Source: Desulfotalea psychrophila LSv54 (GTDB taxonomy: Bacteria > Desulfobacterota > Desulfobulbia > Desulfobulbales > Desulfocapsaceae). From it: DNA of 32,000 bases. Every line of letters starts with the position of its first letter. The first letter of the stretch is position 1. Made by a program: the position numbers and the translations under genes. This document shows, in pieces, positions 1,942 to 29,974 of this stretch. The notes beneath the pieces are model-generated. The model had not been told where the DNA came from. It was given only the letters and a program-made list of their open reading frames with translations, and did no database searches. The stretch covers positions 1,170,001 through 1,202,000 of the forward strand of contig NC_006138.1 in NCBI RefSeq assembly GCF_000025945.1, in the 5' to 3' direction.

Positions 1942-2018
1942 TGGTGCACCCGAAGGGATTCGAACCCCTGACACCCAGGTTCGAAGCCTGGTGCTCTATC
2001 CAGCTGAGCTACGAGTGC
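1942..2018 (-). tRNA. tRNA-Arg (anticodon UCG), CCA encoded
   Basis: The reverse complement GCACTCGTAGCTCAGCTGGATAGAGCACCAGGCTTCGAACCTGGGTGTCAGGGGTTCGAATCCCTTCGGGTGCACCA folds by hand into a 77-nt cloverleaf. The stems are 7-bp acceptor, GCTC/GAGC D stem, CCAGG/CCTGG anticodon stem and a TTCGAAT T-loop. The anticodon loop is CTTCGAA. Confidence 0.9.
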
Positions 2019-4005: not shown

Positions 4006-5133
4006 TTGCCGTTGAGATATGGTAATTTACCTTTTAAATTTCTAACCGTGCCGGAATTACCCTGTTTTTCTGGTGCTCTCATAAAGTCTTATCTAATCGG
4101 GTGCCTCTCCTTGAAATCCAATCCATTTCCTGAAAACGCCGCAGGCCTTGCCAAAAAATACCTCAGCCCGGAGATCTTGCAGGCGCTCAAAGGTGAAACA
4201 ACGGACAGTGGCTTTACCCTGGCCATGGCCATCCGCTCCGGAGTGCTTAATCCGGATAGTTCCATTGGCATATATGCGGGCGATGCCCAATCTTATCGGA
4301 CATTCGCAGCGATTTTACATCCCATCATTGAGGAATACCATGGGGTTTCTGGGGAGGTGCGTCAGGAGTCTGATCTGGCCGCAGTAACTCTTGCGAACCT
4401 TGACCCCGAGGGCAGATATATTCGCTCCAGCCGGGTACGGGTGGCCAGAAACCTCAGGGGCTTTCCCTTTACCAACCATCTTAAGCTGGAGGAGAGAAGA
4501 CGGTTGGAGGAGAAGATTGTAGCGGCCCTCTCCGTTCTTGCAGATGATCTCAGGGGGGAGTATCACTCCTTTGAACTGCTTGGGGCGGAGAAGATGGCCG
4601 CGCTCAGGGCTGAGAAGCTCATCTTTTCTAAGGGGGACAGGTTTCAGGAGGCGGCTGGCTTTAATGCCGATTTTCCAAAATCGAGGGGGATTTTCTTTTC
4701 AGCGGATAAGGGCCTTAGGATATGGCTGGGGGAAGAGGATCATATGCGTATTATCAGCCAAGAGGGATCGGCTGATCTGGCCGCAGTCTTCAACCGTCTT
4801 GGTCGGGCTCTTACGACTCTTGAGGCGAGCCTGGACTTTGTTCGGGATGAGAGCTATGGCTACTTGAGCTCCTGTCCCACCAATATTGGTACCACCATGA
4901 GGGCCGGCGTCCATATTTATCTGGAAAAGCTTAACTGTAACCGGCAGCTACTTGATGCTCTCACCGAAAAACATGATTTGCAGATTCGGGGCACAGGCGG
5001 TGAGAAGACCGAGGTGGATGGTGCCGTCTTTGATATTAGCAATAGAAGGCGTCTGGGCATCTCCGAACGACAGATTATCACTGGCCTCCATGCCGGCCTG
5101 CAGGAGATCATCGAAGCGGAAAAATCCCTCTGA
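4006..5133 (+). CDS. Arginine-kinase-type phosphagen (ATP:guanidino) kinase
   Basis: Signature blocks of eukaryote-type arginine kinases are present. These are the N-terminal domain SGVLNPDSSIGIYAGDAQSYRTF..PIIEEYHG, plus EEDHMRIIS, CPTNIGTTMRAGVHI and RGTGGEKTEVDGAVFDISNRRRLG. The start is uncertain. 4006 is TTG, in-frame GTG 4048 and TTG 4111 are alternatives, and there is no in-frame ATG or clear SD. Confidence 0.85.
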   Translation: MPLRYGNLPFKFLTVPELPCFSGALIKSYLIGCLSLKSNPFPENAAGLAKKYLSPEILQALKGETTDSGFTLAMAIRSGVLNPDSSIGIYAGDAQSYRTFAAILHPIIEEYHGVSGEVRQESDLAAVTLANLDPEGRYIRSSRVRVARNLRGFPFTNHLKLEERRRLEEKIVAALSVLADDLRGEYHSFELLGAEKMAALRAEKLIFSKGDRFQEAAGFNADFPKSRGIFFSADKGLRIWLGEEDHMRIISQEGSADLAAVFNRLGRALTTLEASLDFVRDESYGYLSSCPTNIGTTMRAGVHIYLEKLNCNRQLLDALTEKHDLQIRGTGGEKTEVDGAVFDISNRRRLGISERQIITGLHAGLQEIIEAEKSL

Positions 5134-6365: not shown

Positions 6366-7730
6366 CTATCCCTGGCTTTCTTCATAGCGTTGCAACTTAC
6401 GGTAGAGGGTTTTTCGGTCAAGCTGAAGAATTCGCGCGGCCAGGGTTCTGTTATTATCTGAAACTTTTAATACATGGGTAATATAGCGTCTCTCCATCTC
6501 TTCCATGGAGACAAGTTCCATGGGGTCCTGGTCTCCCAGAAGGATGCAGTCGCCCCGGAAATGCCGAATCTTTTCAGGAAGATCTTCTGGCATAAGTGTG
6601 TCAAAAGCAGTGAGCGCTACTGCGTGCTCGATGGCATTGCGCAGTTCTCGAACATTACCCGGCCAGGCGTAGCGCAGGAGTTTCCCGGCCACAGTATCGG
6701 AAAACCCTATAACCTTCTTCTCTTGCCGAGTGGCAAAGGCATCCATGAACTTCTTGGCCAGGAGCAAAATATCCGCTCCTCGTGAGCGCAGGGGGGGGAG
6801 TTCAATCTTGATAACATTGAGACGGTAGTAAAGGTCTTCTCGAAAAAGGCCATCCTCCACAGCCGACTCAAGATCACGATTGGTAGCGGCAATGATTCGT
6901 ACATCAAAGGGAAGCTCTCTTTGCCCACCTACGGGCCGCACGCACCGCTCCTCAAGGGCCCGTAAAAGTTTAGGCTGAAGCTTCAACGGAATTTCACCCA
7001 CCTCGTCGAGAAAAAGGGTGCCACCGTTTGCTGCCATAAAGAGGCCTGAATTATGGTTTTGGGCATCGGTAAAGGCACCTTTTTTATGTCCAAAGAGTTC
7101 ACTTTCAAGAAGCTGGCCGGGCATAGCGGCACAGTTGATGGTGATCAGGGGATTGTCTCTGCGACGACTATGCGTATGCACAGCCTTGGCAGTAAGTTCT
7201 TTGCCTGAACCACTTTCCCCGCTAATAAGAAGTGATGCCTCTGAATCTGCAATGCGGGCAAGCTGAGAAAAGAGTTTTTCCATAACAGGGCTTTCGCCCA
7301 TGAGGTTGTCAAAATGCTGTGGTTGCCCGATTTGATCACTGAGCTTTTTGACCCGGACCTTGAGTTCGCGATACTGTACAGCTCGCTCAAGACTCAGGGC
7401 CAGGATATCAATATCAAGGGGTTTGGTTACAAAGTCATAGGCACCTGAACGAATGGCTGATATAGCCGTATCCATACTACCGAAGGCGGTCATTATAATA
7501 ACCGGTATATCCGGCGTATTGGCCACAACCTCTTTACAAATATCAAGACCATTGGCATCGGGGAGATTGATATCTGACAGAACCACGTCTGTTGTTTCAG
7601 GATTGATGGCAGCCAGCCCCTCCTGCCCTGAAATATAGGTGGAGACGGCAAAACCACGCCGACGCAAACCCATCGCCAGCATATCACACATATCCTGATC
7701 ATCTTCTATGATGAGGATATTAGATTTCAT
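6366..7730 (-). CDS. Sigma54-dependent response regulator (NtrC family: REC + AAA+ + Fis-type HTH)
   Basis: REC domain (ILIIEDD..., LSDINLPDANG). AAA+ motifs are GESGSGKE, ESELFGH, the loop GAFTDA, and a TLFLDEVGE Walker B. The C-terminal HTH is NNRTLAARILQLDRKTLYRKL. Confidence 0.9.
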   Translation of the reverse strand: MKSNILIIEDDQDMCDMLAMGLRRRGFAVSTYISGQEGLAAINPETTDVVLSDINLPDANGLDICKEVVANTPDIPVIIMTAFGSMDTAISAIRSGAYDFVTKPLDIDILALSLERAVQYRELKVRVKKLSDQIGQPQHFDNLMGESPVMEKLFSQLARIADSEASLLISGESGSGKELTAKAVHTHSRRRDNPLITINCAAMPGQLLESELFGHKKGAFTDAQNHNSGLFMAANGGTLFLDEVGEIPLKLQPKLLRALEERCVRPVGGQRELPFDVRIIAATNRDLESAVEDGLFREDLYYRLNVIKIELPPLRSRGADILLLAKKFMDAFATRQEKKVIGFSDTVAGKLLRYAWPGNVRELRNAIEHAVALTAFDTLMPEDLPEKIRHFRGDCILLGDQDPMELVSMEEMERRYITHVLKVSDNNRTLAARILQLDRKTLYRKLQRYEESQG

Positions 7731-9195
7731 CTATGGTCTCCTGCATGGGGAGGTAGACGGAAAAGCAGGAACCATTGTCTGCCTCGCTTTTTACATCAAT
7801 CCAACCACCGTGTTCTTCAACCATGCCATGGGCAATGGAGAGTCCCAGTCCTGTACCGGTGCCTAAACCCTTGGTGGTAAAAAATGGAGTAAAAATATGG
7901 GCAAGATCGTCCTTGCTTATCCCTTCTCCCTCATCACGTATTCGTATCTTAAGATATTTTTGCTCTCTTCCATCCTCGTTTTCAAAGAGAGGTAGGATGG
8001 GATTGGTCAGACTAATATATATCTTGCCGCCGGATGGCATTGCCTGCACACTGTTCATAAGGAGGTTAATGAGGACCTGTTGGATTTGGGTAGCATCACA
8101 GTAGAGAGTACACTCACTTTTTTCCAGGCTATCGAGCTCAAAACTGACAGCCTGCTTGTTTCCCATGGGATGGAGAAGCTGAATGATCTGTTTGACCAGA
8201 AGACCCACATTGGTGTTTGAGGCTTTTTGTTTGGGGCATCTGGTGAATTCAAGCAGTTGACGTATAATTACCGCCATCCGCTCGGATTGACTCTTGATGA
8301 TGGTTGCGCACTCCTTAATTTCTTGCGGATTCAGCTCTTCGCGTATAATCATTTTTGCCCGTCCATCCACAACATTGAGAGGTGTTCCCAGTTCATGGGC
8401 AATCTCTGCTGCCAGCAGGCCAAAGGTGGAGAGGCGTTCAGTATGTCGCAGTTGATCAAGGGTTCTCAGTCGGGCGTCATGTTCAAAGCCAATTTTTTCT
8501 TTGGCGATAAGAAGCCGTGAACACATATCATTCATAACTGTGCTCATCTTGGCAAATTCACCCTCTCCTACTATCTGTTCATAGGCAGTAATCTCACCGT
8601 TACCTATCCTGCGTGCCTGCGCCATGAGTTTGCCCAGTGGCATCCGTATGTTTCGATTAATAATGATATAGAGAATAATACCGGAAATCAGGGCAAAAAG
8701 TCCTGCCATAATAAGTGCATGGAGAAGAAGATTCCTGGAATAGTGCTGCAAAAAGAAGAGGGTTTGATTAAGTTCCAGTGCACCCTTTCGCCCTGGACTC
8801 ACATCTACAGGAACATAGGTGTAACGATGAGTGGCACCATTTTTGTTTCGCATCTTCACCGAAACGATATTATCTGCAAGTAGGTTTTCGAGCTGGGCTT
8901 CTTTTTTGAGATTTGCCAGCGCATCTTCTGCAAGAGAATCAAACCATACCCAACGAATATCAATGCCACCTGCTTCACTGGCATCATGTATCAGCTCGAT
9001 AGCTTTTTCTTCACCACTTTCACGCCACACATGAGAAATCATGCCGGAGATGCTTTTCCCATCCTGAATAGCACTGGTAATCATATCAGTCTCATATTGA
9101 GCAATCGCTGCCCGAAAGCGTAGGTAGCTATCTGCACCAATCAGGAGAAGTACGCCCAGGAAGATAGAGACAAAAAGTTGATAAAAGAGTTTCAT
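7720..9195 (-). CDS. Membrane sensor histidine kinase (periplasmic sensor, HAMP, HisKA, HATPase_c)
   Basis: Two TM segments flank a ~140-aa loop. H-box is AAEIAHELGTPLNV, N-box is LLMNSVQAM, and G-boxes are RDEGEGI and GTGLGLSIA. Its stop overlaps the regulator start by 11 nt. Confidence 0.85.
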   Translation of the reverse strand: MKLFYQLFVSIFLGVLLLIGADSYLRFRAAIAQYETDMITSAIQDGKSISGMISHVWRESGEEKAIELIHDASEAGGIDIRWVWFDSLAEDALANLKKEAQLENLLADNIVSVKMRNKNGATHRYTYVPVDVSPGRKGALELNQTLFFLQHYSRNLLLHALIMAGLFALISGIILYIIINRNIRMPLGKLMAQARRIGNGEITAYEQIVGEGEFAKMSTVMNDMCSRLLIAKEKIGFEHDARLRTLDQLRHTERLSTFGLLAAEIAHELGTPLNVVDGRAKMIIREELNPQEIKECATIIKSQSERMAVIIRQLLEFTRCPKQKASNTNVGLLVKQIIQLLHPMGNKQAVSFELDSLEKSECTLYCDATQIQQVLINLLMNSVQAMPSGGKIYISLTNPILPLFENEDGREQKYLKIRIRDEGEGISKDDLAHIFTPFFTTKGLGTGTGLGLSIAHGMVEEHGGWIDVKSEADNGSCFSVYLPMQETIDEI

Positions 9196-9321
9196 AATGC
9201 CCTTGTAGGTTACTTATATCCTGAATTATCAGACCAGATATTAACAGCTTACTCAATTGCGAAAAAATTGCATGACAAAATGCAGAGGTATAGAACGTAC
9301 CAGAGAATTTATAAAACAGGG

Positions 9322-9346
9322 ATTGATGGCGGGCTCTGCCATCAAT
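9322..9346 (-). terminator. Hairpin downstream of the last gene of the hydrogenase-like operon
   Basis: attgatggc-gggctct-gccatcaat is a 9-bp stem, 35 nt after the stop at 9381. On the minus strand it is followed by CCCTGTTTTAT, a weak U-run. Confidence 0.45.
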
Positions 9347-9380
9347 TCTTGTACCGCCTTCGGCTCTGCCCGGGACGAGC

Positions 9381-10127
9381 TTATTTGAAATAGTTCAACA
9401 GGGCATGCAGGGTGGTGAGGGGATGAGGAGGGCAACCGGGAATATAGAGGTCTACGGGAAGCAAGCTATTCAAATCGCCCACAACTTCGCTGCTTCCGTA
9501 AAAAGGTCCACCAGAGATAGAGCAGCAGCCGCTGGCAATGACAACCTTGGGAGAGGCAACTGCCTCATAGGTGGTGATGAGCGCCTGTCTCATATTATGG
9601 GAAATGGGTCCAGTCACATGGAGACCATCAGCGTGGCGAGGGGAGGCAACAAAATCAATCCCGAACCTGGATAGATCAAAAAATGGGGTGTTCAGTACGT
9701 TGGTATCAGCTTCACAGGAGTTACAGCCGCCAGCGGATACCTGACGGAGTTGCAGGGATCTGCCAAAGAGCTTCTTGAAATGTGCCTTTGACTGTTTTGC
9801 CAGGGCAGGAAGCCCTGTGCTGCCAACAATCAATTCATCTCGATTGGCTGCACCCAATTCAAAGTTCTGGCTGAATTTTACAAAATTCCCCTCGGCAACC
9901 GTTTCGCATTGGCCGCAAAAGGTACATCTCCCCAGATCAATGGTTTTTGCCTCTGGATCAATACACTCTTGAGGACAGATATCTAGACATTGCCTTGCAA
10001 TCTCCGCTGAGCAATCCTTGTTGATAACAGGCATTCCTCGGTAGCGGTGGTAGAGGGAAATCGGCTCCTTGGGATACTTGGCGGTTTTATTCCCCTGCTC
10101 CATTTTATTCTTTATTATTTTCAGCAT
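9381..10127 (-). CDS. NuoB/HycG-type small subunit fused to an N-terminal ferredoxin-like (HycF/NuoI-like) segment
   Basis: 248 aa. The N-terminal segment has CLDICPQEC and CTFCGQCETV. The NuoB-like core has GGCNSCE, ASGCCSISGG and IPGCPPHP, the four Cys of the proximal 4Fe-4S cluster. SD GAAGGGG lies 6 nt before the ATG. Confidence 0.8.
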   Translation of the reverse strand: MLKIIKNKMEQGNKTAKYPKEPISLYHRYRGMPVINKDCSAEIARQCLDICPQECIDPEAKTIDLGRCTFCGQCETVAEGNFVKFSQNFELGAANRDELIVGSTGLPALAKQSKAHFKKLFGRSLQLRQVSAGGCNSCEADTNVLNTPFFDLSRFGIDFVASPRHADGLHVTGPISHNMRQALITTYEAVASPKVVIASGCCSISGGPFYGSSEVVGDLNSLLPVDLYIPGCPPHPLTTLHALLNYFK

Positions 10128-10183
10128 AGCAAACCCCTTCTCTTCACTCTATTTGTCTATGGCCCATAGGGGCCGAAGTTCGT

Positions 10184-11698
10184 TTACAGATCAAACCCGC
10201 AATAGGAGAGATTAAAGCTCTTATTACAGAGAGGAAAATCAGATATCTCCTGGTTTCTGAGGGACATCGCCAGTCCAGTCCAGTTGTGAAAGGAAGGATC
10301 CTTTATCTTATAGCGTTGCACCTTACCCTTTTTATCCGTTAAAATGCAGTGGGATATCTCCCCTCTCCAGCCCTCATTCAGGGTGATAATAAAGGCGTTT
10401 GGCGCCAGTATCTGATCCTGCATATGTACCTCGGAGGCAGTGTTCTCAGACTCTTCAATGAGGATGTTAATAAGTTTTAGAGAGTGCATAATTTCTTCTA
10501 CCCGCACCATACCGCGACTATTGACATCACCATTGGTTACCCGGTTCTCATTGGCAGGAAGTTCTCTGTAACATTCGGTGGGAAAACTGTTTCGAACGTC
10601 GTAGGCAATACCGGAGGCCCTTCCCGAATAGCCCACCAGGCCAAGATCTTTCGCCATTTCATGCTGCACTGTTCCGGTATGTTCAAAACGTGCCTGAACC
10701 GTATGGGCTGAAAAGATGAGATCACAGATATTTTCAATTTCGCCGGTCACCTCTAACAGCTTTTCGCGAATCAGTTTTCGTTGCTCCTCTCTCATGATAT
10801 GGGTAACTCCGCCCGGTCTCACCAGGCCCTTACCAAAGCGATTGCCACTCAGCACCTGAAGAAGATTGAGGAATTCACCCCTGATCCTGCCAAAATAGGC
10901 AGCCGGAGGGTTAAAGGCCGCATCACCTGCGAGAGCGCCAAGATCACCTATGTGATTACATATCCTCTCAAGTTCCAGCGCAGTGGTACGAATAATTTTG
11001 GCGCCTCTGTCAACAGAGATGCCAGCCAGCCCCTCTATGGCCTGACACATGGAGAGGCCGTGGCCAATGGAGGTGTCTCCTGCAATAGATTCGCAGATAA
11101 TAGGAAAACGTTTTTGGGGCAGGGTTGGCAGCATCTTTTCAATACCCCGGTGCTGATAGCCCAGTTGAATTTCCAGATGCAGTACCTCTTCACCGGCACA
11201 TTGGAAGCGAAAATGGCCGGGCTCAATAATACCTGCATGAACAGGTCCGACAGCAACTTCGTGAATAGATTCGCCCTCGACACTAAAGAAAGGGTAATTA
11301 CCTGGAATGTTTTCTTTTCCATAGTTATTACCAAAGACATCTTTAGCACCTGCATAATTTTTATGGTAGCGAACCATCTTTAACCACGGATGACCGTCGG
11401 GAGTTATCCCATATTGCTCTGCAATCTCCCGCTCAAACATATGAAATTTTTCACTTACTGCTCCAGTAAGAGACTGAAAAGATTTCCCTACTTCAGTGCC
11501 AATGACATAGAGATCTCTGTTTCTCACCACCGCCAGAAGGTGTTTCTTTTGCCCTTCCTCATAGGCGAAGAACTGGACAATAAAACCCTCATTTCTGACA
11601 AAGTCTGAGAGAGTTGTAAAAAAAACCTCATAGCTCACATGGGGAATAAGGCTTCGGTCTATGGCCTGCCCATTGTCTATTTTTAGGAGATTATCCAT
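10184..11698 (-). CDS. HycE/HyfG/NuoCD-like large subunit lacking all NiFe-ligating CxxC motifs
   Basis: An N-terminal NuoC-like part is followed by a NuoD/large-subunit part (VGPVHAGIIEPGHFRF, YQHRGIEKM, LELERICNHIGDLG). The start is reassigned to ATG 11698, with SD GGAGG 8 nt upstream. The track start 11713 is TTG. The protein has 9 Cys but no CxxC anywhere. Expected motif positions read ESIAGDTSIGH and NLSYCGFDL-stop. Confidence 0.8.
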   Translation of the reverse strand: MDNLLKIDNGQAIDRSLIPHVSYEVFFTTLSDFVRNEGFIVQFFAYEEGQKKHLLAVVRNRDLYVIGTEVGKSFQSLTGAVSEKFHMFEREIAEQYGITPDGHPWLKMVRYHKNYAGAKDVFGNNYGKENIPGNYPFFSVEGESIHEVAVGPVHAGIIEPGHFRFQCAGEEVLHLEIQLGYQHRGIEKMLPTLPQKRFPIICESIAGDTSIGHGLSMCQAIEGLAGISVDRGAKIIRTTALELERICNHIGDLGALAGDAAFNPPAAYFGRIRGEFLNLLQVLSGNRFGKGLVRPGGVTHIMREEQRKLIREKLLEVTGEIENICDLIFSAHTVQARFEHTGTVQHEMAKDLGLVGYSGRASGIAYDVRNSFPTECYRELPANENRVTNGDVNSRGMVRVEEIMHSLKLINILIEESENTASEVHMQDQILAPNAFIITLNEGWRGEISHCILTDKKGKVQRYKIKDPSFHNWTGLAMSLRNQEISDFPLCNKSFNLSYCGFDL

Positions 11699-13118
11699 TG
11701 ATCGTACCTCCAATCAGGGAAATGGAATTAATAATAGCCTTATAAAGGGCATCCGGCATCCATATGCAGATGGTGGCTGACATTAAGAGCAGGGCATAGG
11801 GCGGTATCAGACGGAGAATGTTCTCCTTGGTTCGTACAGGGGAGCCACCGTCGCCAAAGGACATGGACATGAAGATGCGACCCGATCCGGCACAAACCAG
11901 GGTTATGGCAAAGAGGAAGAGTCCGGCTGGCAGGTATCGGCCGTTTTGCAAGGCCCCGATAGTAATGATGACCTCACTTATAAAAAGGCCAAAGGGAGGA
12001 AGCCCTGAGATGCCCACAAAACCGGCAAAAAGGGAGATAAATGTCTTAGGCAGGTGGCGTACTACCCCGCCGATCTTCTGTACCTTTTTGCTGTCAAAAC
12101 CTAGGAGGACATTGCCTGCCGAGAGAAAGAGGGAAGATTTAATTAGTGAGTGATGGAGGATATGGAGAAAAGCCCCATAGACGGCAAAACCACCAATTCC
12201 TACCCCGAAGGCAATAACGCCCATATTCTTAATACTGGAATAGGCAAGCATTCTCTTATAATCAGGTTGGCTGATGATGAAAATTGCCCCGACAAACATG
12301 GAGAAGAGACCAAAACCGACCAGTACATTTCCTGAAAATCCGCCAAGCCCTGCCATGGTCATCAGCACATGTACCTTATAGATGCCAAGAAAGGCACAGT
12401 TCAAAAGAGCGCCGGATAAAAGTGCTGAAGCCGGACTTGGCGCCTGGCTATGGGCATCCGGTAACCAGGTATGCATGGGGGCAAGCCCCATCTTGGTTCC
12501 GAAACCAATGACTACAAAGATGAAGCCGGTTTTTAACCAGAGAGGGTCAAGTTGAGGAGCTACCTGATAAAGAGAGTTAAAGGTTAGAGGTGCATCGATA
12601 TTGCCAAGATCCATGGAGAGGGTAATGAAAAAACAGCCAAGGAGGGCAAGGGCAATCCCCACTGAACAGATCAGCACATACTTCCAAGTTGCTTCCAAAG
12701 CTTCCTGAGAGCGATGAATAAAGATCAGAGGAGCACTGACAAGGGTGGTGGCTTCAACGGCAATCCATAAAACAATTGGGTGATCCGAAAGGGTTACCAT
12801 GGACATGGTGCCGAGAAAGAGCATCATGCAACAGTTAAAGAGGGGTTTATTCTCAACCTCTGTTTCCTCTATATAGGAAAAGGCATATATGGAGATACAG
12901 ATAAAAATAAAAGAGGTGAGCAGGAGAATGAGTAAACCCTCAGGAGAAATCCCAAAGAGTTGGGGATAAGAAGGACTCAGGGCACCTAGCCAGGCCATCG
13001 CAGTCAGAACCAAATGCAGGCCCGCCACCGCAAGCAGAAGCACCCTCCCCATCTGTACAGGTAGGATCAGGACTGAAATCCCGGTAACAAAGGGAATTAT
13101 AAATATTAATTCTAGCAT
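11691..13118 (-). CDS. Mrp/NuoN/HyfF-type antiporter-like membrane subunit
   Basis: 475 aa and polytopic. Motifs WLPDAHSQAPSPASALLSG and LAYSSIKNMG are typical of the proton-conducting NuoL/M/N-MrpD family. Its stop overlaps the next gene's start (ATGGATAA). Confidence 0.8.
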   Translation of the reverse strand: MLELIFIIPFVTGISVLILPVQMGRVLLLAVAGLHLVLTAMAWLGALSPSYPQLFGISPEGLLILLLTSFIFICISIYAFSYIEETEVENKPLFNCCMMLFLGTMSMVTLSDHPIVLWIAVEATTLVSAPLIFIHRSQEALEATWKYVLICSVGIALALLGCFFITLSMDLGNIDAPLTFNSLYQVAPQLDPLWLKTGFIFVVIGFGTKMGLAPMHTWLPDAHSQAPSPASALLSGALLNCAFLGIYKVHVLMTMAGLGGFSGNVLVGFGLFSMFVGAIFIISQPDYKRMLAYSSIKNMGVIAFGVGIGGFAVYGAFLHILHHSLIKSSLFLSAGNVLLGFDSKKVQKIGGVVRHLPKTFISLFAGFVGISGLPPFGLFISEVIITIGALQNGRYLPAGLFLFAITLVCAGSGRIFMSMSFGDGGSPVRTKENILRLIPPYALLLMSATICIWMPDALYKAIINSISLIGGTING

Positions 13119-13122
13119 ATTA

Positions 13123-13776
13123 TCAATCCTTTAGGCGTCCGAGTAAAGTGGTGTCAACATCATCAAAGGCACTGTTGATGTTGTGCAGGATGATTCCCAT
13201 AACCATGACCCCTACCAGGATGTCGAGCAGGATACCAAACTCCACTATATAGAGGGTATGGCTATGCTTGGTCAGGGCAGTACCAATGAGATAGATGCCA
13301 TTTTCAAGCATCAGGTAGCCAATAACCTGAGTAATGGCTTTGGTTCTTGCCATCATTAGAAAAAATCCTGAGGCCATGGTGGTGATGGCGGTAATCAGCA
13401 CTATTTCCTCTCCGCCATTAAGGGATGGACGCAGGTAATTGGTGATGAAAACGGAAACGAGGATAATGCCAAGCCCGGTGAAAATAGACGCGTGATAGCC
13501 GATAATGGGCACGATCTCCCGTTTAATGACTACTCGCTTTAGGGCTACATAAAGTAGACCCGGTATAATTATTCCCTTAACGATGAGCATGAGTAGAAAG
13601 AAACCAATTGCTCCAGCGCCGAAATCGCCATGATCCCTTAAAAAGAGAGGGATGATGGAAACAGCAGCTCCCTGCCAAGCCATAATTGTCACCAAAGTCT
13701 TCAATCTAGACGTTCCAAGGGAGAACATTACCGAGAGAAGAATGATGACCAGGGTTACCTCTGTAAAATTTATCAT
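13123..13776 (-). CDS. HyfE-like small polytopic membrane subunit (NuoK-related)
   Basis: 217 aa, matching the size of E. coli HyfE. It is entirely hydrophobic with about 7 helices. It has an ATGA start/stop overlap with the upstream gene. The call rests on position and size within a hyf-like gene order. Confidence 0.65.
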   Translation of the reverse strand: MINFTEVTLVIILLSVMFSLGTSRLKTLVTIMAWQGAAVSIIPLFLRDHGDFGAGAIGFFLLMLIVKGIIIPGLLYVALKRVVIKREIVPIIGYHASIFTGLGIILVSVFITNYLRPSLNGGEEIVLITAITTMASGFFLMMARTKAITQVIGYLMLENGIYLIGTALTKHSHTLYIVEFGILLDILVGVMVMGIILHNINSAFDDVDTTLLGRLKD

Positions 13777-14690
13777 TGAAAGACTCCCATGGTTAAGATG
13801 GCAGCAAAGAATGCCAGGGCGAAGGAGGTGAGGATGAACTTCGGTACTCCATCCATCTTGAAGCGAGCAGTAATGGACTCGGTTACCCCAATGCTCACAT
13901 AGAGCAGAGCCATAATAGTGTAGAAGACCAATGCGTTGACGATACCGGCGCCCCCGCTGAATGGATAGATAACATGGGTGATAAAAGCGGAATAAAAGAA
14001 CAGTTTATAAAAGGCTCCCAGCTCGATTAAGGCCAGATCAGGGCCACTGTGGTCAAGGATCATGGCCTCATGAATCATGGTCAGTTCAAGATGAGTTTGA
14101 GGGTCATCAACCGGTACTCTGGAGTTTTCGGTGAGAAGTACCATGAACAGGGAAACGATAACGAAAACCATCAGGGCCCCGGAAACAGCAAAGAGAGAAA
14201 GAGGATTGTCTCCCGTAAAGTATTCCGCAAAACTCAAAGATCCATTGAGGCGATAAAAGAGGATGAGAACGGCAAAGAGGGTGATTTCAGCAAGGGTTGA
14301 AAAAAACACCTCACGGGCAGCGCCCATACCTGCAAAAGGAGACGCTGTATCAAGTGCTGCGAGCACTGTAAAGAATCGGCCTATTCCCATGATATAGAAG
14401 AGGACAATCACGTCTCCATGGAAGGAGAAGAGAGGCGCTGCCCCGGCAAAGGGGAAAAAGAGGAGAACAATAAGAGCCGATGTAAACGAGACAGTAGGCC
14501 CCATTTTAAAGATAAAACTGGTGCTGGTGCTATATACGGAGCCCTTTTTTAAGAGTTTGCTCAGGGTATAGTACTTAATTAAAAGTGGTGGCCCCTGTTT
14601 ACCTGCAAAAAATGCCTTTACCTTGCCGATTATACCCGGAAAAAGGGGTGCTGACAGCATGGCTACGGCTAGTGATATATATGATTCCAT
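13773..14690 (-). CDS. HycD/HyfC/NuoH-like membrane subunit
   Basis: 305 aa and polytopic, with a size and hydropathy pattern like HycD/NuoH. It follows the NuoL-like subunit as in the hyf and hyc operons. SD AGAGAGG precedes the ATG. Confidence 0.7.
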   Translation of the reverse strand: MESYISLAVAMLSAPLFPGIIGKVKAFFAGKQGPPLLIKYYTLSKLLKKGSVYSTSTSFIFKMGPTVSFTSALIVLLFFPFAGAAPLFSFHGDVIVLFYIMGIGRFFTVLAALDTASPFAGMGAAREVFFSTLAEITLFAVLILFYRLNGSLSFAEYFTGDNPLSLFAVSGALMVFVIVSLFMVLLTENSRVPVDDPQTHLELTMIHEAMILDHSGPDLALIELGAFYKLFFYSAFITHVIYPFSGGAGIVNALVFYTIMALLYVSIGVTESITARFKMDGVPKFILTSFALAFFAAILTMGVFQ

Positions 14691-14722
14691 GGTTTACCTC
14701 TCTAAAATGTTCCTCTCTTCTC

Positions 14723-16681
14723 TTAAACGCAGAGAAGAAGGACGATGATTGTCACAGCTATATAGGCAATATAGAGTTGAATATGGCCATGTTGAATCCA
14801 ACGGAATTTGCCTAAAAAGTAGAGAAGAGGCGTTACAATTCGCTCAATCAGACAGACCTCTGCTATATCGTCCACCTCGGTTTTATAGGTGGTCTTCCTG
14901 GGGAATATTCTTTTGATCCCCGAATAGTTTGTCTTTATTTGAATAAATGGCCTAAAGAAGGCGATGATGCTCATCGCATAAGAGGTCCCTGTGTATTGCA
15001 TCTTTACGCTGGGTTGGGCAAAAGCACAGCCCCAGGTTGGCGCTTGTACAACCACCTTATTGCGGTATAAAAGTTTACGTAGCAATGTGCTGAAAATGAG
15101 CACAGCAAGGAAGAGCCGGGCTGCAAGGCCAAGGTTTTCGGCGAGTAGTGTTACCTCTGCTCCGTCTATAGGCGTTAAAGCGGGAATGCTTGCAAGGGCG
15201 CTAAAGACAATACCGACAAAGGGCGCTGGGAAAAGGCCAATAAACAGACAGGAGGCAGCGAGGAAAATCATGGGAAGGGTCATGGTAAATCCTGCCTCAG
15301 TAGCCTTTGCCGCCTTGGCAGTCCGTGGCTCACCAAGGAAAATTATCCCCATCATTCGGGTAAAACAGGAGGCGGCAAGGCCACCGATGATGGCGAGTGC
15401 GAGGATGGACAGCATGGCGAAAAGAAAGGCTGAACCCTTAAGGCTCAGGCCATGAAAGGCACCATAATAAATCAAAAACTCACTAATAAAGCCATTAAAG
15501 GGAGGCAGACCAGAGATGGAGACACTGCCTGCGAGAAAACTCTTACCGGTAAGGGGCAGACGTTTTATCAAGCCGCCCAGTTCGTCGAGGCGTCTGGTTC
15601 CTGTCTTTTGTACGATAGCGCCGGCACCAAGAAAAAGTAGGGTTTTAAAGAGGGAGTGGTTGAGCACATGGAGGAGGCAGCCTGCAAAGCCAAAACTTGC
15701 CATCACCATATTTCCCGTGCTCATACCCATCATGCCAATACCGGCACCAATGAGGATGACACCTATATTTTCCACACTACTATAGGCGAGTACCTTCTTG
15801 ATGTCCTGCTTGCCAAGGGCGTAAACCACACCTAAAATCCCTGAGATCATACCCAGGGTGAGCACTGTTTGACCGATTATAAGGCTGGTGTCTTCAAGCT
15901 CAACATAGAGGCGGATAATCCCGTAGATACCCATCTTAATCATTACCCCGGACATAATCGCCGAGATATGACATGGTGCGGCCGGGTGAGCATGGGGTAA
16001 CCACATATGCAGGGGAAAGATGCCTGCTTTTGAACCAAATCCTACCAGGGCGAGGAAGAAAACAATCAATTTGATATGGGCTGGCAAGGTGGCAAATGCT
16101 GCAAAATCATGGATTCCTGTTTGGCTATAGGCTAAGGCGAGTGCTGCAATGATGAACATTGCACCTGCCTGGGCAAAGACAAAGTAGATATATCCAGCTC
16201 TGCGTGTATCCTCTTCCTGATAGTCGTGAATGACAAGAAAAAAGGAAGAGAGCGACATCAACTCCCATACCAAAAGAAAGCTGATAATATTATCAGCTGC
16301 TGTCACCAGGGCCATAGATATGAGGAGAAGATTAAAGAAAAAGAAACTCACACCGATTCGTCCCTTCTCTTCAATCTTGTCCATATAATGATAGCTGTAG
16401 AGTGCTGCTAAAGGGCATACGACAAAGATAGGAATCAGGAAAAATGCGGAAAGAGCATCTAGGGAAAAAGAGAGGGTGAAAAGATGTAGCCATGGCCTTG
16501 AAAAGCTGGGCACTACAGCACCGTGCAGGGGGATTGTGATTGCATATATACCAATCGCACAGCCTACAGCTGTAATTATCACATAGCCGACCTTCATTAC
16601 ATTAAAATGGCGATAGCTCAGTAATGAAAAAATCCCACCGACAAATAACACTGTGAGTGAAAGTAGAAAGATGTTCATCAT
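14723..16681 (-). CDS. HyfB/HycC/NuoL-type antiporter-like membrane subunit
   Basis: 652 aa. Motifs WLPHAHPAAPCHISAIMSG and LAYSSVENIG mark the NuoL/MrpA family. It is the first gene of the six-gene block. Confidence 0.8.
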   Translation of the reverse strand: MMNIFLLSLTVLFVGGIFSLLSYRHFNVMKVGYVIITAVGCAIGIYAITIPLHGAVVPSFSRPWLHLFTLSFSLDALSAFFLIPIFVVCPLAALYSYHYMDKIEEKGRIGVSFFFFNLLLISMALVTAADNIISFLLVWELMSLSSFFLVIHDYQEEDTRRAGYIYFVFAQAGAMFIIAALALAYSQTGIHDFAAFATLPAHIKLIVFFLALVGFGSKAGIFPLHMWLPHAHPAAPCHISAIMSGVMIKMGIYGIIRLYVELEDTSLIIGQTVLTLGMISGILGVVYALGKQDIKKVLAYSSVENIGVILIGAGIGMMGMSTGNMVMASFGFAGCLLHVLNHSLFKTLLFLGAGAIVQKTGTRRLDELGGLIKRLPLTGKSFLAGSVSISGLPPFNGFISEFLIYYGAFHGLSLKGSAFLFAMLSILALAIIGGLAASCFTRMMGIIFLGEPRTAKAAKATEAGFTMTLPMIFLAASCLFIGLFPAPFVGIVFSALASIPALTPIDGAEVTLLAENLGLAARLFLAVLIFSTLLRKLLYRNKVVVQAPTWGCAFAQPSVKMQYTGTSYAMSIIAFFRPFIQIKTNYSGIKRIFPRKTTYKTEVDDIAEVCLIERIVTPLLYFLGKFRWIQHGHIQLYIAYIAVTIIVLLLCV

Positions 16682-16975
16682 TCCTCGTTTTAAAAAAGTT
16701 AGTCACTAGGGTGAATGTTGTCTTGTCTGAGAACTTTGGTGAGTTATCATTTGGTCATAAAACCTCCATCTTCGTGGTGTTAAATCTGTCATTATATTGC
16801 TTATATCCTTAAGTAATTTATCTTTTCGTGTGAGCCTTATCTGGGCTAAGGCAGGCATCCTCTCAGTCTGAGATGGTTGCCTGCGGGGGGCTCTCTGGGA
16901 GCTGGAGACCTGGTGGCCTTGTAACAGACCTCCAATAAAGAGGCTTATATTTCCAGTATTAATGTCTCTAAAGGG

Positions 16976-17224
16976 CTAGAGGATGTCAGAGCCTGCATCT
17001 TCAAGGGTATACCCATACCATGCACTTCCTTGAGAGATGGCGGGGAGAGGGAGTATGGGGATCATATTCTCGCTTCTGGCTATCATGAATTCCATCCATT
17101 GGCTGGCATCGGATGAGGAGATAAAGGGTCCGAGCTCTGTACAGATCTGCATTCCCTGAAAATCTTTACTAATGTTTTTGCTAGCTTCTTGCAGGTCTTG
17201 GGTGATGCCAATGAACATTTTCAT
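16976..17224 (-). CDS. Hypothetical 82-aa protein, paralog B of a tandem pair
   Basis: ATG with SD GAGGAAGG. It shares MKxFIGITQ, TELGPFxSxxDAxxW and WYGxTxE with the ORF at 17293-17526. Confidence 0.6.
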   Translation of the reverse strand: MKMFIGITQDLQEASKNISKDFQGMQICTELGPFISSSDASQWMEFMIARSENMIPILPLPAISQGSAWYGYTLEDAGSDIL

Positions 17225-17292
17225 GATGCCTTCCTCTCTCTTGAGTGATACATAGAATGGGTAAAGTGCTGCGCAGGGAGCCCAGCCGACAA

Positions 17293-17526
17293 TTAGATCT
17301 GCTCAAAGGTGAAACCATACCACCCGCCATCTTTAGAGGTGTTCTCCATGCTGGAGAGCTCTTCAAGATTTCTGATCTTCTCCTTCAGGTGGTTCAACCA
17401 AAGAAGTGCATCTTCTTGAGAAAGAAAGGGACCGAGCTCGGTTAAAGAGTCTTTCGTTCCGCCTTGATAAGTAAGAAGTCTCTGTATCTCTTCTTGATTT
17501 TGGGTAATACCAATAAAAATTTTCAC
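17293..17526 (-). CDS. Hypothetical 77-aa protein, paralog A of a tandem pair
   Basis: GTG start with AAAGG 8 nt upstream. It is the first ORF downstream of the sigma54 promoter. About one third of its residues are identical to the ORF at 16976-17224. Confidence 0.6.
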   Translation of the reverse strand: MKIFIGITQNQEEIQRLLTYQGGTKDSLTELGPFLSQEDALLWLNHLKEKIRNLEELSSMENTSKDGGWYGFTFEQI

Positions 17527-17580
17527 ATTTGACCTTTATGAAAATAAAATAATAACAACATCTTAACCTTGACCTTCTGA

Positions 17581-17596
17581 TACAAAATCAGTGCCA
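17581..17596 (-). promoter_or_regulatory. Sigma54 (-24/-12) promoter
   Basis: The minus strand reads TGGCAC-TGATT-TTGTA, against consensus TGGCAC-N5-TTGCA (one mismatch, correct spacing). It lies ~55 nt upstream of the GTG at 17526. Confidence 0.6.
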
Positions 17597-17897: not shown

Positions 17898-18106
17898 TAA
17901 AGGCAAAACGCTACAGAAGGGGATGGGAAGTCGATAAAACCTTCTTCTGCAAATATGATCGGAGCTTGACCTGTGCTCAACTGGAGTAATGACTTTATTC
18001 GCCCCCCCCCCTCGCTAAAGACCTGCTTCTTTAGAGTGGCGGGGCTCCGGGGTCTGATAGTCTATCTTCAAGGATCAATGAGGGTGAAAGCTCTGGCTCC
18101 ACCTAA

Positions 18107-18820
18107 TCATCCCACGCTGAAGCGAAAGACACCATCTCCAGGTCGATTAAGAGAGGAGCTACCTAGGCTTATCCTGCGCTCGGAGAGTTGCTCGATGACG
18201 TGTTTCAGGTGGTCGCCGGGTAAGATGACATTGAGGTGAGCATCTTCAGATGCGCTGTGTCTGGAGCAGCAGGCCGGGGATATTTTGGCTAGGTTTTTAT
18301 TGTGGACCAGGACACAATCCGCACAGGAGGCGGAGTTGCTATTTACCTCTAGTGGCTGAGCGCCGGATGCCAATGTCCACTGGTCAATAAGCTCATCGGC
18401 CTGGGCCTTGGTGCAGTAACAGTGAACTGTATCCGCTACAAATTGAGCAACCGTGAGCGGGGCGATAGCAATACCTAAAACCCCATGTTGCAGTTGTTGC
18501 CTCGGATGATTGCTTGCCTGAGCAGTGGCATCCTGCCAGTTGAAGCGATACTTCGCATCATCACAGCCAAGAGTTTTTGCCTCTAAATAGATGATCTGTT
18601 TTTCTAGGTGGGCGGTATCCATCAGGGTGCAGAAGGGTGTTGCCTGTGTTGGCTCATGGTAATCATGCCATTTTTTGAAGTAATCAACTTCAATCTGGGC
18701 GTAGAAAAATTTTACTGCAACTGGAGGATGGCAGAGCTTGAGCTCTGTCATCAGGGTTTCCTGCATATTTTGATAGTTGCGTCTATAGAGTGGTTTCTCG
18801 TCTAGTGGCTTTTCATACAT
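18107..18820 (-). CDS. Hypothetical protein, possibly DUF169 (COG2043) family
   Basis: 237 aa, ATG with SD AAAGGAA. The N-terminal LKLCHPPVAVKFF and scattered Cys resemble DUF169 proteins as recalled from memory. The family assignment is tentative. Confidence 0.45.
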   Translation of the reverse strand: MYEKPLDEKPLYRRNYQNMQETLMTELKLCHPPVAVKFFYAQIEVDYFKKWHDYHEPTQATPFCTLMDTAHLEKQIIYLEAKTLGCDDAKYRFNWQDATAQASNHPRQQLQHGVLGIAIAPLTVAQFVADTVHCYCTKAQADELIDQWTLASGAQPLEVNSNSASCADCVLVHNKNLAKISPACCSRHSASEDAHLNVILPGDHLKHVIEQLSERRISLGSSSLNRPGDGVFRFSVG

Positions 18821-28535: not shown

Positions 28536-28569
28536 AACGTTCCTTTATGTTGAGCAATTTGTTAAACTA

Positions 28570-28867
28570 CTATCTTTTCTGCCGCATACCTTTGCCACTT
28601 AAAATCTGCTCGATATCCTTGTCACTAACAGATAAGTTGAAAAACTTCTGATAAAAAAAACGGATCTCTTGTTCTAGGTTAATATCCTTAAAATATTCAG
28701 GATATACCGTCTTGGCAGTCCATAAAATAGCAAGTGGTGTCTCTAGACCTCCTGGATGCCCCAACGAGAAATACTGATTGGTATCGAATAGACGAGTTTA
28801 TTTTTTACAGCATCAATCTGCGCCCATTTTTTGTCCCGATTAATGTCTTCTTTTACGGATGATTCAT
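28570..28867 (-). pseudogene. 3' remnant of a FecB/BtuF-type ABC substrate-binding protein gene, truncated by the IS relic and frameshifted
   Basis: The minus frames give VKEDINRDKKWAQIDAVKNKLVYSIPISISRW, then a frameshift near 28770, then GHPGGLETPLAILWTAKTVYPEYFKDINLEQEIRFFYQKFF. This is the typical C-terminus of siderophore/cobalamin-type binding proteins. The N-terminal ~200 aa are absent. Confidence 0.65.
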
Positions 28868-29765
28868 GGCCTTGTCGCATAAATCATGAGGGAAGAAAAT
28901 TATCTGCCCTCTACTCCATTCCATCTTAGCAAACAGCCTCTCGAACAGGCATTCCTAAAGCGGTAATCTTGTTTAAAGCTTTGATCGCAGCCCTAGCTGC
29001 TGGCACCCCGTATTCGCGGAGGCTTAATTTGTCACAGATCAACTGTTTGTAGCGATACATCGCTGTTTCAGTAAGAGACCATACGTGGATGAGCAAACAC
29101 CTTTGACTGCAATATGATAGCACTCTTTCGTATCCGGCGAATCGCCTGATATCTGCTCTATGCGTCGTCAAAGAGGATTCAAGAGATGCCCTAAAACTTT
29201 GGAGTATGAACGCGCTCTAGAGAGATTTCGCCACTTAGGCGATCAGTCTCGGCATCGATTGCAAGGTGAAGCTTACGCCAGGTTCTACGTTTGGAAGCCC
29301 CATGTTTTCTGACGATCCACTCTCCTTCGCCATGGTTTAGCCCCGTCGAATCGATATGCTTAATCGGCCCACGGCTTGGTAGTCTGTAATTCACCTAAAC
29401 TGTTTGGGCACGCCTGCTGACAGGTATATCAGGTGCCTGGAAGGTCGATATCCATCAGTTCTAAAAGTGAATTAAGAAAATCTTCAGTACCTCTGAGAGA
29501 AAGGCTGTAAATGGTTCCACATCAAACAGGTCGTGCATCATCAGTATACTTGCGACTACGGCCACGCTGTGCCGATGGTGTCGTGCTGTACCAACTTTTA
29601 GTCGCTTTCTTGTCCATCCAAAACGTCAACGCCATTGCTTTAGCGCTCTGTTGTATTCAGGCCAATTTGTCATCCTCTACTCTCTCTCATAACTCCCCCA
29701 ATGCTCTCCGTTACAAGAAAACATCATCGAGCAATGCCAGCAACTTCTATTTGTGCAACAAGGCC
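28868..29765 (-). mobile_element. Decayed IS5-family (IS903-group-like) insertion sequence, ~0.9 kb, transposase broken by frameshifts
   Basis: The terminal inverted repeats are ggccttgtcgcataaatcatg (28868 onward) and atttgtgcaacaaggcc (ending 29765). Transposase fragments are TNWPEYNRALKQ (about 29650), IDSTGLNHGEGEWIVRKHGASKRRTWRKLHLAID (29191-29394) and ETAMYRYKQLICDKLSLREY..ALNKITALGMPV (28926-29171). There is no flanking 9-bp duplication. Confidence 0.8.
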
Positions 29766-29779
29766 TCCTGTTATGACAG

Positions 29780-29974
29780 TTTAAACTGTGATTTTAGTTG
29801 ATTATGGGCCCTTGAAGAATATTTGCTGTTAGGGTATTAATGTCTCTTGTGTCAAGGGACATGGGGATGCGCATCTCTCTTGCGAGAGACTGTGGGTGGA
29901 GGTTTTCGTGACCTATTCACTATGCGCAACATTATGTTTTAAGACGCTGTTGCACTTATTGTATTAACTCAGCA
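29780..29974 (+). repeat. ~190-bp dispersed repeat, copy B, ending in TIR-like motif copy d (29949-29974)
   Basis: Shares ordered blocks with copies A and C. It ends tgttgcacttattgtattaactcagc, 31 nt upstream of the rhodanese ATG. It abuts the IS relic on its left. Confidence 0.65.

Follow-up and report, generated by a model that had tools for sequence, protein, structure and literature searches.

Complexes of the energy-converting-hydrogenase-related (Ehr) kind received their name in Geobacter (Coppi 2005), and Marreiros et al. 2013 generalised the class, as passages of PMC7894505, PMC13194489 and PMC6349859 relate. They are described as group 4 hydrogenase relatives without the Ni/Fe-coordinating residues, suspected of coupling redox reactions to charge translocation (PMC6349859), and as being close to group 4f, without CxxC motifs and of unknown function (PMC10284858). 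The subunit types of the Geobacter ehrABCDLS product have been named and its physiology has never been investigated (PMC7894505), while one account calls Ehr 'nonfunctional' (PMC13194489); Ehr has been listed in genomes since 2005 with no assigned function. The locus considered here lies on the chromosome of Desulfotalea psychrophila LSv54 within a stretch of 32,000 nucleotides (nt), referred to below as the window, whose own numbering is used for all positions. Six head-to-tail open reading frames (ORFs) on its minus strand, running from 16681 to 9381, form what is by gene content and sequence an ehrABCDLS operon, predicted to encode a hydrogenase-4-derived, complex-I-like membrane complex of the known Ehr class. 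Missing cysteines define that class; the interest of the locus lies instead in the pattern of conservation, in a dedicated regulatory system, and in the association of related loci with carbonic anhydrase and SulP genes.

Gene content and the large-subunit pocket

14723–16681, minus strand: ehrA, HyfB/HycC/NuoL-like antiporter-like subunit, 652 amino acids (aa); Pfam Proton_antipo_M, NCBIfam hydrogenase 4 subunit B
13773–14690, minus strand: ehrB, NuoH/HycD/HyfC-like, 305 aa; Pfam NADHdh, 9e-30
13123–13776, minus strand: ehrC, small HyfE-like membrane subunit, core NuoK-like, 217 aa; NCBIfam hydrogenase 4 membrane subunit
11691–13118, minus strand: ehrD, HyfF/NuoN-like antiporter-like subunit, 475 aa; Proton_antipo_M, NCBIfam hydrogenase-4 subunit F
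10184–11698, minus strand: ehrL, HycE/NuoCD-like large subunit without nickel–iron (NiFe) ligands, 504 aa; Pfam and PDB matches
9381–10127, minus strand: ehrS, HycF/NuoI-like ferredoxin domain fused to a HycG/MbhJ/NuoB-like domain, 248 aa; Oxidored_q6, PDB matches
11060–11092, minus strand: codons for ESIAGDTSIGH, EhrL residues 203–213, in place of RxCGxCxxxH; HycE alignment
10187–10213, minus strand: codons for NLSYCGFDL, EhrL residues 496–504, in place of DPCxxCxxH/R; HycE alignment

The Hyf/Hyc-like order of the six genes, already proposed in a first-pass annotation made from the sequence, is borne out by the ORFs and by Pfam and NCBIfam. The genes ehrB and ehrC overlap by 4 nt and the end of ehrD overlaps the start of ehrL, which is consistent with a single operon. 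All matched operon proteins score below the curated NCBIfam equivalog cut-offs, so the six include no orthologue of a named Hyf or Nuo subunit. The length of 504 aa for EhrL is counted from an ATG, an alternative reading from an upstream TTG giving 509 aa, and the NCBI entry 'hydrogenase large subunit [Desulfotalea psychrophila]' matches the product at 100% identity. Homologues of fdhF, hycB, hyp or hycI, which the first-pass annotation had reported as absent from the window, are not found among its ORFs of at least 100 aa.

When EhrL was compared by phmmer with all PDB chains, E. coli HycE ranked first (7z0s_E, 8e-42) and MbhL second (1.5e-36), with NuoD/Nqo4-type chains at 1e-30 or weaker and MbsL (6u8y) at 2e-17 lower down. 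In the alignment with HycE, the L1 motif RVCGICGFAH stands opposite SIAGDTSIGH, with Cys replaced by Ala and by Thr, and the L2 motif SLDPCY stands opposite SFNLSY, with Cys replaced by Ser and a Gly three residues on in the place of the fourth Cys; the four NiFe ligand cysteines are all replaced (Ala, Thr, Ser, Gly). The large subunit had been said to hold nine cysteines and no CxxC, and this stands: the cysteines are residues 167, 202, 218, 247, 325, 376, 451, 491 and 500, and the alignment with HycE places no cysteine pair at the NiFe positions. Pfam NiFeSe_Hases (PF00374) does not match EhrL, the only Pfam matches being Complex1_49kDa and a weak Complex1_30kDa, and the protein ends at NLSYCGFDL, without a cleavable C-terminal extension. 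The hydrogenase-type Glu-Pro-Gly-His loop GPVHAGIIEPGHFRF is kept, including the Glu found next to the active site of HycE and MbhL, and the whole stretch is invariant or nearly so in an alignment of 81 EhrL sequences. In complex I, His38 and Tyr87 of Nqo4 bind the quinone head group; in the alignment of EhrL with T. thermophilus Nqo4 (2fug_4) these positions are Ile and Gly, and a canonical complex-I quinone site was ruled out for EhrL on this ground. Because the NiFe cysteines and the quinone ligands are both absent, the EhrL pocket is neither hydrogenase-like nor complex-I-like. From these alignments EhrL is almost certainly incapable of binding a NiFe centre, and the complex is, with the same near-certainty, an Ehr member and not a hydrogenase. 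The first-pass annotation's reading of the class agrees with the published descriptions of Ehr; as to its idea of an 'intermediate' between hydrogenases and complex I, the complex is not simply intermediate at the active site, since the complex-I quinone ligands are absent as well.

The replaced residues are strongly conserved. When one genome per GTDB species was scanned, 303 genomes proved to encode a close relative, and the best 80 loci of these (63–82% identity) were compared, giving with D. psychrophila a set of 81 EhrL sequences at 63–100% identity; nearly all of the 80 are labelled as Desulfobulbales genera or families or as unclassified delta-/Proteobacteria. The six-gene order is kept in every related locus with a contig spanning the operon, and also in the distant loci L082 and L085 (L numbers denote compared loci). 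Residues E203, I205, A206, G207, D208, T209 and H213 of EhrL are invariant in the 81 orthologues (E-x-I-A-G-D-T-x-I-G-H), and the C-terminal replacement motif KSFNLSYCGFDL is invariant or nearly so in these Desulfobulbales sequences; within the pattern K-S-[FY]-N-L-S-Y-C-G-F-D-[LI], residues 496–501 and 503 are invariant in all 81 and residues 502 and 504 slightly variable. An HMMER search of 1.84 billion cluster representatives returned 5449 matches at E<=1e-3 and 727 at E<=1e-30, from which the 150 nearest representative clusters (33–52% identity, 121 of them full-length) were examined. E-x-x-[ASC]-G-D-[TS]...H together with NLSY-x-G-x-DL is present in 118 of the 121 full-length clusters; G207 and D208 are retained in 94% of these 118, and the C-terminal end falls at the identical position in 113. 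Clusters with CGxC and CxxC number three among the 150 nearest representatives (34–38% identity), and one CxxC-bearing neighbour cluster, P0206, carries PF00374. The assignment to the Ehr class, made in the first-pass annotation, holds on the missing ligands, the ehrABCDLS make-up, the replacement motifs and the published description alike.

Comparison with L001, a Desulfotalea sp. metagenome-assembled genome and the closest relative, gives synonymous divergence (pS) of 0.70–0.85, which is saturated, and nonsynonymous divergence (pN) of 0.10–0.14 across the six genes: the ehr operon is under strong purifying selection. A sequencing error or frameshift hiding the cysteines is ruled out by identical residues in the 81 orthologues and in the 118 distant clusters, and a non-functional relic by the conservation of the motifs and by pN far below pS.

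Iron–sulfur clusters, membrane arm and regulation

EhrS joins two parts, residues 2–100 matching HycF (8e-11) and residues 110–245 matching MbhJ (1.7e-30) and HycG (1e-29) in the PDB. The four cysteines of the proximal cluster are kept, as the first-pass annotation had stated, and align with those of MbhJ and HycG: C135 and C138 (GGCNSCE), C202 and C232 (PGCPP). This GGCNSCE is a CxxC of the hydrogenase type, unlike the tandem CC with which NuoB of complex I holds N2. Ten cysteines (39, 47, 51, 68, 71, 74, 135, 138, 202 and 232) are invariant in 80 orthologues. Those of the ferredoxin-like half are arranged as C39-x7-C47-x3-C51-P and C68-x2-C71-x2-C74-x3-Ala, and cross-ligation is usual in ferredoxins with two [4Fe–4S] clusters; a single complete ferredoxin-type 4Fe–4S set is present, C68, C71 and C74 with C51, and the motif of the distal (surface) cluster is degenerate, C39 and C47 being its sole remaining cysteines. 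EhrS is predicted to retain two [4Fe–4S] clusters, the proximal one and one of the ferredoxin type, which by motif position would correspond to N6b, next to the proximal cluster. The small subunits of the outgroup loci L081–L083 carry two complete CxxCxxCxxxCP-type motifs. All four proximal cysteines are lost in the small subunits of L084 (1799–2560; DNSA / TSA / PGNPP) and L085 (8644–9429; DASV / SEA / PGAPT), whose large subunits still carry the Ehr pocket motif despite this loss, so that function in these two loci would be independent of electrons passing through the proximal cluster.

The membrane arm resembles that of hydrogenase 4 with its pump residues in place. EhrA scores 571 bits against the NCBIfam model for hydrogenase 4 subunit B, where the cut-off is 667 bits, and its best PDB matches are HycC (9e-64) and MbhH (3.5e-56); EhrD scores 308 bits against hydrogenase 4 subunit F, below the cut-off, and EhrC 64 bits (1.4e-17) against hydrogenase 4 membrane subunit HyfE. 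The antiporter-like subunits EhrA and EhrD also match MrpA and MrpD of the Mrp system. Invariant residues include E140, K218, K249, H338, H342 and K346 of EhrA (66 orthologues), E122, K209, H322, H323 and K327 of EhrD (73 orthologues), and the acidic loop of EhrB (E188, D195, D196, E202 and E208, 75 orthologues), while E158 and E179 of EhrC are conserved. Both antiporter-like subunits keep the canonical pump residues, namely the Glu of transmembrane helix 5, the Lys of helix 7, the Lys/His of helix 8 and the Lys of helix 12, and the arm also keeps two HyfE/NuoK-like Glu and a NuoH-like acidic loop. The complex is probably functional in ion translocation.

Upstream and downstream of the six genes lie the following features.

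17581–17596, minus strand: sigma-54-type promoter (-24/-12, TGGCAC-N5-TTGTA), 55 nt upstream of sp1; sequence reading and pattern scan
17293–17526, minus strand: sp1, 77 aa, GTG start, first gene of the operon; translation, with homologues in the same position in about 40 loci
16976–17224, minus strand: sp2, 82 aa, paralogue of sp1 (34% identity); ORF
9322–9346, minus strand: terminator-like hairpin, 9-bp stem and T-rich tail, 35 nt past the ehrS stop; consensus scan, a prediction
7720–9195, minus strand: sensor histidine kinase, HisKA and HATPase_c with an unassigned N-terminal sensor region, putative cognate sensor; Pfam, NCBIfam
6366–7730, minus strand: NtrC/AtoC-type sigma-54-dependent response regulator; Pfam Response_reg, Sigma54_activat and HTH_8

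The sigma-54 pattern matches twice in the window against 0.22 matches expected. Of the 39 related loci with an orthologue of the small ORF, 30 have a similar site (TGGCAY-N5-(T)TGCW) 54–108 nt upstream of it, and this conservation is the decisive evidence for the predicted promoter. The other exact match, TGGCACCATTTTTGTT at 8832–8847 on the plus strand, runs antisense within the histidine-kinase gene and is probably due to chance. The first-pass annotation had set the upper limit of the operon at 17596, which proves to be that of the sigma-54-type promoter, and had passed over sp1 and sp2. No Rfam riboswitch or other known RNA was found in the operon leader, the window's only Rfam match being a tRNA gene elsewhere (1945–2018, minus strand; RF00005, 67.8 bits), and no enhancer-like repeats were found upstream of the promoter, where there is one hairpin only (18005–18044). 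That hairpin, with 17-nt arms and a run of nine G, is probably the terminator of the gene for a DUF169 protein (18107–18820, minus strand) directly upstream of the promoter region, a gene whose adjacency to ehr is not conserved in relatives.

About 40 Desulfobulbales loci encode, in this same position, members of the family to which the small proteins belong; it carries no annotation and has the motif M-K-I-x-I-G-I-T-Q...GPF...A..W...WYGFTFE. A hypothetical D. psychrophila protein at NCBI matches sp2 with 100% identity. A word-index homology search with sp1 and sp2 gave two matches only, Pfam a weak DUF4170 match in 3 of 21 family members, and a profile search of the PDB nothing. An AlphaFold2 model of sp1 from a three-sequence alignment has a predicted local distance difference test (pLDDT) score of 72 and a beta-alpha-beta-alpha-beta-beta topology, for which Foldseek found no match below E=0.36. 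Orthologues of the histidine kinase (43–61% identity), in which sequence inspection predicts two transmembrane helices, and of the response regulator (60–79%) are linked to the ehr operon in about 26 loci, usually directly upstream of the small gene, although in the D. psychrophila window and in L001 they lie downstream. A linkage that outlasts such rearrangement supports a regulatory relationship, and the pair is the putative cognate sensor and activator of the promoter at 17581–17596.

Carbonic anhydrase and SulP genes beside related operons

Clustering of all ORFs of the 81 ehr loci brought out a gene, here called X, that encodes a protein of about 393 aa annotated as hypothetical and that lies directly upstream of ehrA, between it and the small gene, or just past ehrS in 42 of the 81. 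X is at 3700–4878 in L001 and at 9001–10182 in L088. The Pfam LCIB_C_CA match of X is below threshold (E=0.007), while some X relatives are annotated with this domain and one UniRef entry is named accordingly. An AlphaFold2 model of X (pLDDT 78; predicted template-modelling score 0.80) reaches a Foldseek probability of 1.0 with structures of the LCIB family only, namely 6kfs, PtLCIB4 (5b5y, 5b5z and 5b60), LCIB (5k5w) and LCIC (5b5x), at target-normalised template-modelling scores of 0.62–0.72, and no other fold reached E=0.09. No sequence-level match of X to the solved LCIB structures was found, the link being one of fold comparison. Fifty X sequences share invariant C52-S53-D54, H104 and C131, of which C52, D54, H104 and C131 are candidate zinc ligands. 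The zinc ligands of PtLCIB4 are reportedly (Jin et al. 2016) Cys46, His102 and Cys126, to which the spacing of C52, H104 and C131 is similar, and a Cys46-Ser47-Asp48 motif in that protein would agree with S47R and H88A, the names of mutants in the PDB.

A second type of carbonic anhydrase and an anion transporter recur in the same surroundings. In Desulfofustis glycolicus a co-oriented block consists of a beta-carbonic anhydrase (Pro_CA), a SulP/STAS transporter, a histidine kinase, a response regulator, a small gene, X and ehrABCDLS. The order sp, X, ehrABCDLS, beta-carbonic anhydrase is seen in L051, L056, L063 and L066; X, ehrABCDLS, SulP in L052, L057, L065 and L070; and SulP followed by ehrA in L019 and L024. 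Of the 57 loci that offer 3 kb or more on each side, 38 have X, the beta-carbonic anhydrase and/or SulP on the strand of the operon inside the fetched flanks, in most cases less than 500 nt away. Among distant Ehr loci, a SulP gene follows the operon in L084 (38% identity) and split CHR-family anion transporter genes follow it in L085; an HMM search of L081–L084 found neither X nor sp. No link between Ehr and carbonic anhydrase, between LCIB and Desulfobulbales, or between cable bacteria and anhydrase was found in the literature covered, a body to which Marreiros 2013 and Pereira 2011 do not belong.

Other genes of these neighbourhoods may be recorded here. Twenty-four related loci encode a protein of some 280 aa that resembles cytidylate kinase (Pfam Cytidylate_kin2, with a weak (d)CMP kinase match), in most of them just downstream of ehrS (12462–13298 in L002); the gene is also present in L088 (17903–18739) and is not found in the window. 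In L089, from the cable bacterium Candidatus Electrothrix sp. YB6, an X homologue (9001–10188) lies away from ehr, flanked by CbiM/CbiQ-type and ZnuA/ABC-3 metal-uptake genes and beside a transposase-associated gene. In the D. psychrophila window itself, positions 4006–5133 on the plus strand encode an ATP:guanido phosphotransferase of the phosphagen/arginine-kinase type with both Pfam domains, an unusual bacterial enzyme, which is probably the bacterial arginine kinase of D. psychrophila that has reportedly been characterised, and about 1.5 kb at 28536–30005 hold short ORFs only (<=96 aa) and no Rfam match.

Proposed function and known counterparts

Strong purifying selection on the pocket, the pump residues, the gene order and the regulator argues that Ehr does something specific. 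The explanation that accounts best for the whole is an ion-translocating, non-hydrogenase complex tied to the handling of CO2 or bicarbonate, a reading held tentatively and at clearly less than an even chance. A reaction at the junction of EhrL, EhrS and EhrB would be coupled to the movement of H+ or Na+ in the membrane arm, and might be either electron transfer, in which a low-potential donor in the cytoplasm would feed the two clusters and these an acceptor other than protons, or a non-redox step that consumes protons. Transcription would start at the sigma-54 promoter ahead of the two small accessory genes, switched on by the linked histidine kinase and NtrC-type activator. A role in CO2 or bicarbonate handling is proposed because of the carbonic anhydrase, LCIB-like and SulP neighbours in relatives: Ehr may energise the interconversion or uptake of CO2 and bicarbonate, or a linked pH homeostasis, and D. 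psychrophila would have kept the core machine without an anhydrase encoded at the locus. A link to inorganic carbon in this clade falls just short of an even chance. In NDH-1MS (CupA on NdhF3/D3) and in DabAB, antiporter-like subunits make carbonic-anhydrase chemistry vectorial, and by analogy Ehr might do the same, although vectorial CO2 hydration is somewhat unlikely as the mechanism. A still bolder proposal, which is unlikely, is that the Ehr of Desulfobulbales, including cable bacteria, might be a third independently evolved coupling of a complex-I-type ion-translocating module with carbonic anhydrase chemistry, in which a hydrogenase-4-derived core with a rebuilt pocket would work with X, beta-carbonic anhydrase and SulP under a sigma-54 two-component switch in energised CO2 hydration, bicarbonate accumulation or pH control in anaerobes; D. 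psychrophila would have kept core and regulator and lost the anhydrase encoded at the locus.

Several observations weigh against a connection with inorganic carbon. Gene neighbourhood is circumstantial evidence, and the window itself has no carbonic anhydrase, LCIB-like or SulP gene; neither tblastn nor blastn found a remnant of X in the 294-bp gap between sp2 and ehrA (16682–16975). Among the nearest relatives (L001–L016 and L067), X is present in L001 and L015 only, and the other 15 have none of X, beta-carbonic anhydrase and SulP. A D. psychrophila homologue is absent from the top 120 matches of X, so the core function of Ehr cannot depend on X, and with no partner genes at the D. psychrophila locus that function must stand alone. 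Zinc binding and anhydrase activity of X are predicted from fold and conserved residues alone. The SulP proteins score as generic SulP, as DauA-like and as BicA-like, so that their substrate is not assignable by sequence, and in sulfate reducers the cargo could be sulfate. The invariant cluster cysteines of the D. psychrophila clade argue for a redox step, and expression in Geobacter ties Ehr to growth on formate and not explicitly to CO2 (PMC7894505).

Such a redox step is what a ferredoxin:menaquinone oxidoreductase would perform, a minimal analogue of complex I or NDH-1L in which reduced ferredoxin would serve as donor, menaquinone bound at the EhrL/EhrS/EhrB interface would accept the electrons by way of the two clusters, and this would drive proton pumping, the carbonic anhydrase neighbours being add-ons or coincidence. 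In its favour, no homologue of the Q- and P-modules is missing (NuoB, C, D, H and I, two antiporter-like subunits and a NuoK-like core), and the pump residues do not vary; nor do the proximal-cluster cysteines within the D. psychrophila clade, and D. psychrophila keeps the core without a nearby anhydrase gene; NDH-1L and NDH-1MS, by analogy, share one common redox core. Yet the positions of Nqo4 His38 and Tyr87 are Ile and Gly in EhrL, the cluster that would face ferredoxin is degenerate, distant Ehr lineages dispense with the proximal cluster while keeping the pocket, and EhrL is nearest by sequence to hydrogenases and not to NuoD, all of which makes this explanation an unlikely one. The loss of Fe–S ligands, progressive across Ehr lineages, would rather suit a Mrp-like non-redox cation/proton antiporter in which the Fe–S clusters have a structural role only and the hydrogenase-like cap acts as a structural plug, and the matches to MrpA and MrpD and the lack of a partner dehydrogenase gene in the operon point the same way. 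A mere plug is hard to square, however, with a pocket and remaining cluster ligands that are invariant in 81 orthologues, and a dedicated sigma-54 two-component switch and carbonic-anhydrase partners imply specific chemistry; the antiporter is quite unlikely.

Two further explanations, both very unlikely, borrow the chemistry of better-known group 4 relatives. The complex might be a sulfur or polysulfide reductase like MBS/Mbx, in which electrons from ferredoxin would reduce sulfane sulfur in the vicinity of the proximal cluster or at the cluster itself: the family is abundant among Desulfobulbales that disproportionate sulfur or oxidise sulfide, such a role would fit their sulfur-cycling lifestyle, MBS (matched as 6u8y) is a precedent for a NiFe-less group 4 derivative, and a rhodanese and a TauE-family gene are present elsewhere in the window. 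Against this stand a similarity to MbsL (2e-17) much weaker than that to HycE and MbhL, the absence of the extra Mrp-type subunits of MBS, and the finding that no sulfur-metabolism gene is conserved beside the operon across the 81 loci. Alternatively, it might serve a formate-hydrogenlyase-like system as its membrane module, the partner formate dehydrogenase being encoded at another locus, with electrons going to some other acceptor or to H2 at an unrecognised site, as the hyf gene order, the proposal of a formate dehydrogenase–Ehr complex for Margulisbacteria (PMC6349859) and the greatest abundance of Geobacter Ehr subunits in formate-grown cells (PMC7894505) would allow; CO2 from formate oxidation would also suit an anhydrase partner. 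But no fdh, hycB or hyfA is found in the window or conserved in the 81 loci, the distal cluster toward a HycB-like wire is degenerate, and the NiFe site needed for H2 production is absent. That the locus is a decaying, non-functional hydrogenase relic, or that a sequencing artefact masks its cysteines, is next to impossible: Geobacter Ehr is regarded as non-functional in a 2026 paper (PMC13194489), but the same non-Cys motifs recur in the 81 orthologues and the 118 distant clusters, no reading frame is broken, pN falls far short of pS, and gene order, promoter and regulator are conserved, an effective refutation.

To return to the preferred reading of an ion-translocating complex tied to CO2 or bicarbonate, the repeated adjacency of the operon in most Desulfobulbales to two unrelated carbonic-anhydrase families and to SulP gives a substrate-unknown class an experimentally testable hypothesis. 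Were it true, anaerobes would have in Ehr a hydrogenase-derived equivalent of cyanobacterial NDH-1MS and of the DAB carbon pumps, with a bearing on the carbon and pH physiology of sulfate reducers, sulfur disproportionators and cable bacteria; should the carbon link fail, the invariant pocket would still mark a site of catalysis on the evolutionary line that joins hydrogenases and complex I.

Set beside these systems, the locus shares with NDH-1MS (CupA/CupS) and DabAB, as an analogy only, the joint encoding of antiporter-like subunits and a carbonic-anhydrase-like protein that is seen for X and ehr in 42 of the 81 loci. It differs in that X has an LCIB-type beta-carbonic anhydrase fold and not that of CupA or DabA, that the core derives from a group 4 hydrogenase, and that the D. 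psychrophila locus is without an anhydrase gene. With complex I/NDH-1 it has in common homologous Q-module and membrane-arm subunits with conserved pump residues, whereas the operon is without NuoA, NuoEFG and a separate NuoJ and its proteins are without the tandem CC and the quinone ligands. E. coli Hyf/Hyc (7z0s, group 4a) provides the best PDB match for EhrL and EhrA, with HycG just behind MbhJ for EhrS, and the likeness extends to the hyfB-C-E-F-G-H/I order, the CxxC of the proximal motif and the Glu-Pro-Gly-His loop; in contrast to Hyf/Hyc, ehr is without NiFe cysteines, HyfA/HycB, HyfD, formate dehydrogenase, maturation protease and C-terminal extension, and the counterparts of HyfH and HyfI are fused in EhrS with one complete ferredoxin-type cluster only. 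The MBS/Mbx complex of Pyrococcus (6u8y) is likewise a group-4-derived respiratory complex without a functional NiFe site, although it has additional Mrp-type subunits, separate NuoI-like and NuoB-like proteins and low similarity to EhrL (2e-17). The closest counterpart is the EhrABCDLS of Geobacter sulfurreducens (GSU0739-45), which is likened by its description and has the same subunit types A, B, C, D, L and S and a large subunit without the NiFe CxxC, as in EhrL. Beyond Geobacter Ehr as described, the Desulfobulbales clade has a sigma-54 promoter, one or two small genes, a two-component system and a degenerate distal cluster motif, and most relatives, though not the D. psychrophila window, have carbonic-anhydrase and SulP neighbours; the wider Ehr class is held together by the replacement motifs GD[TS]..H and C-terminal NLSY.G.DL, which are common to EhrL and the 118 distant clusters.

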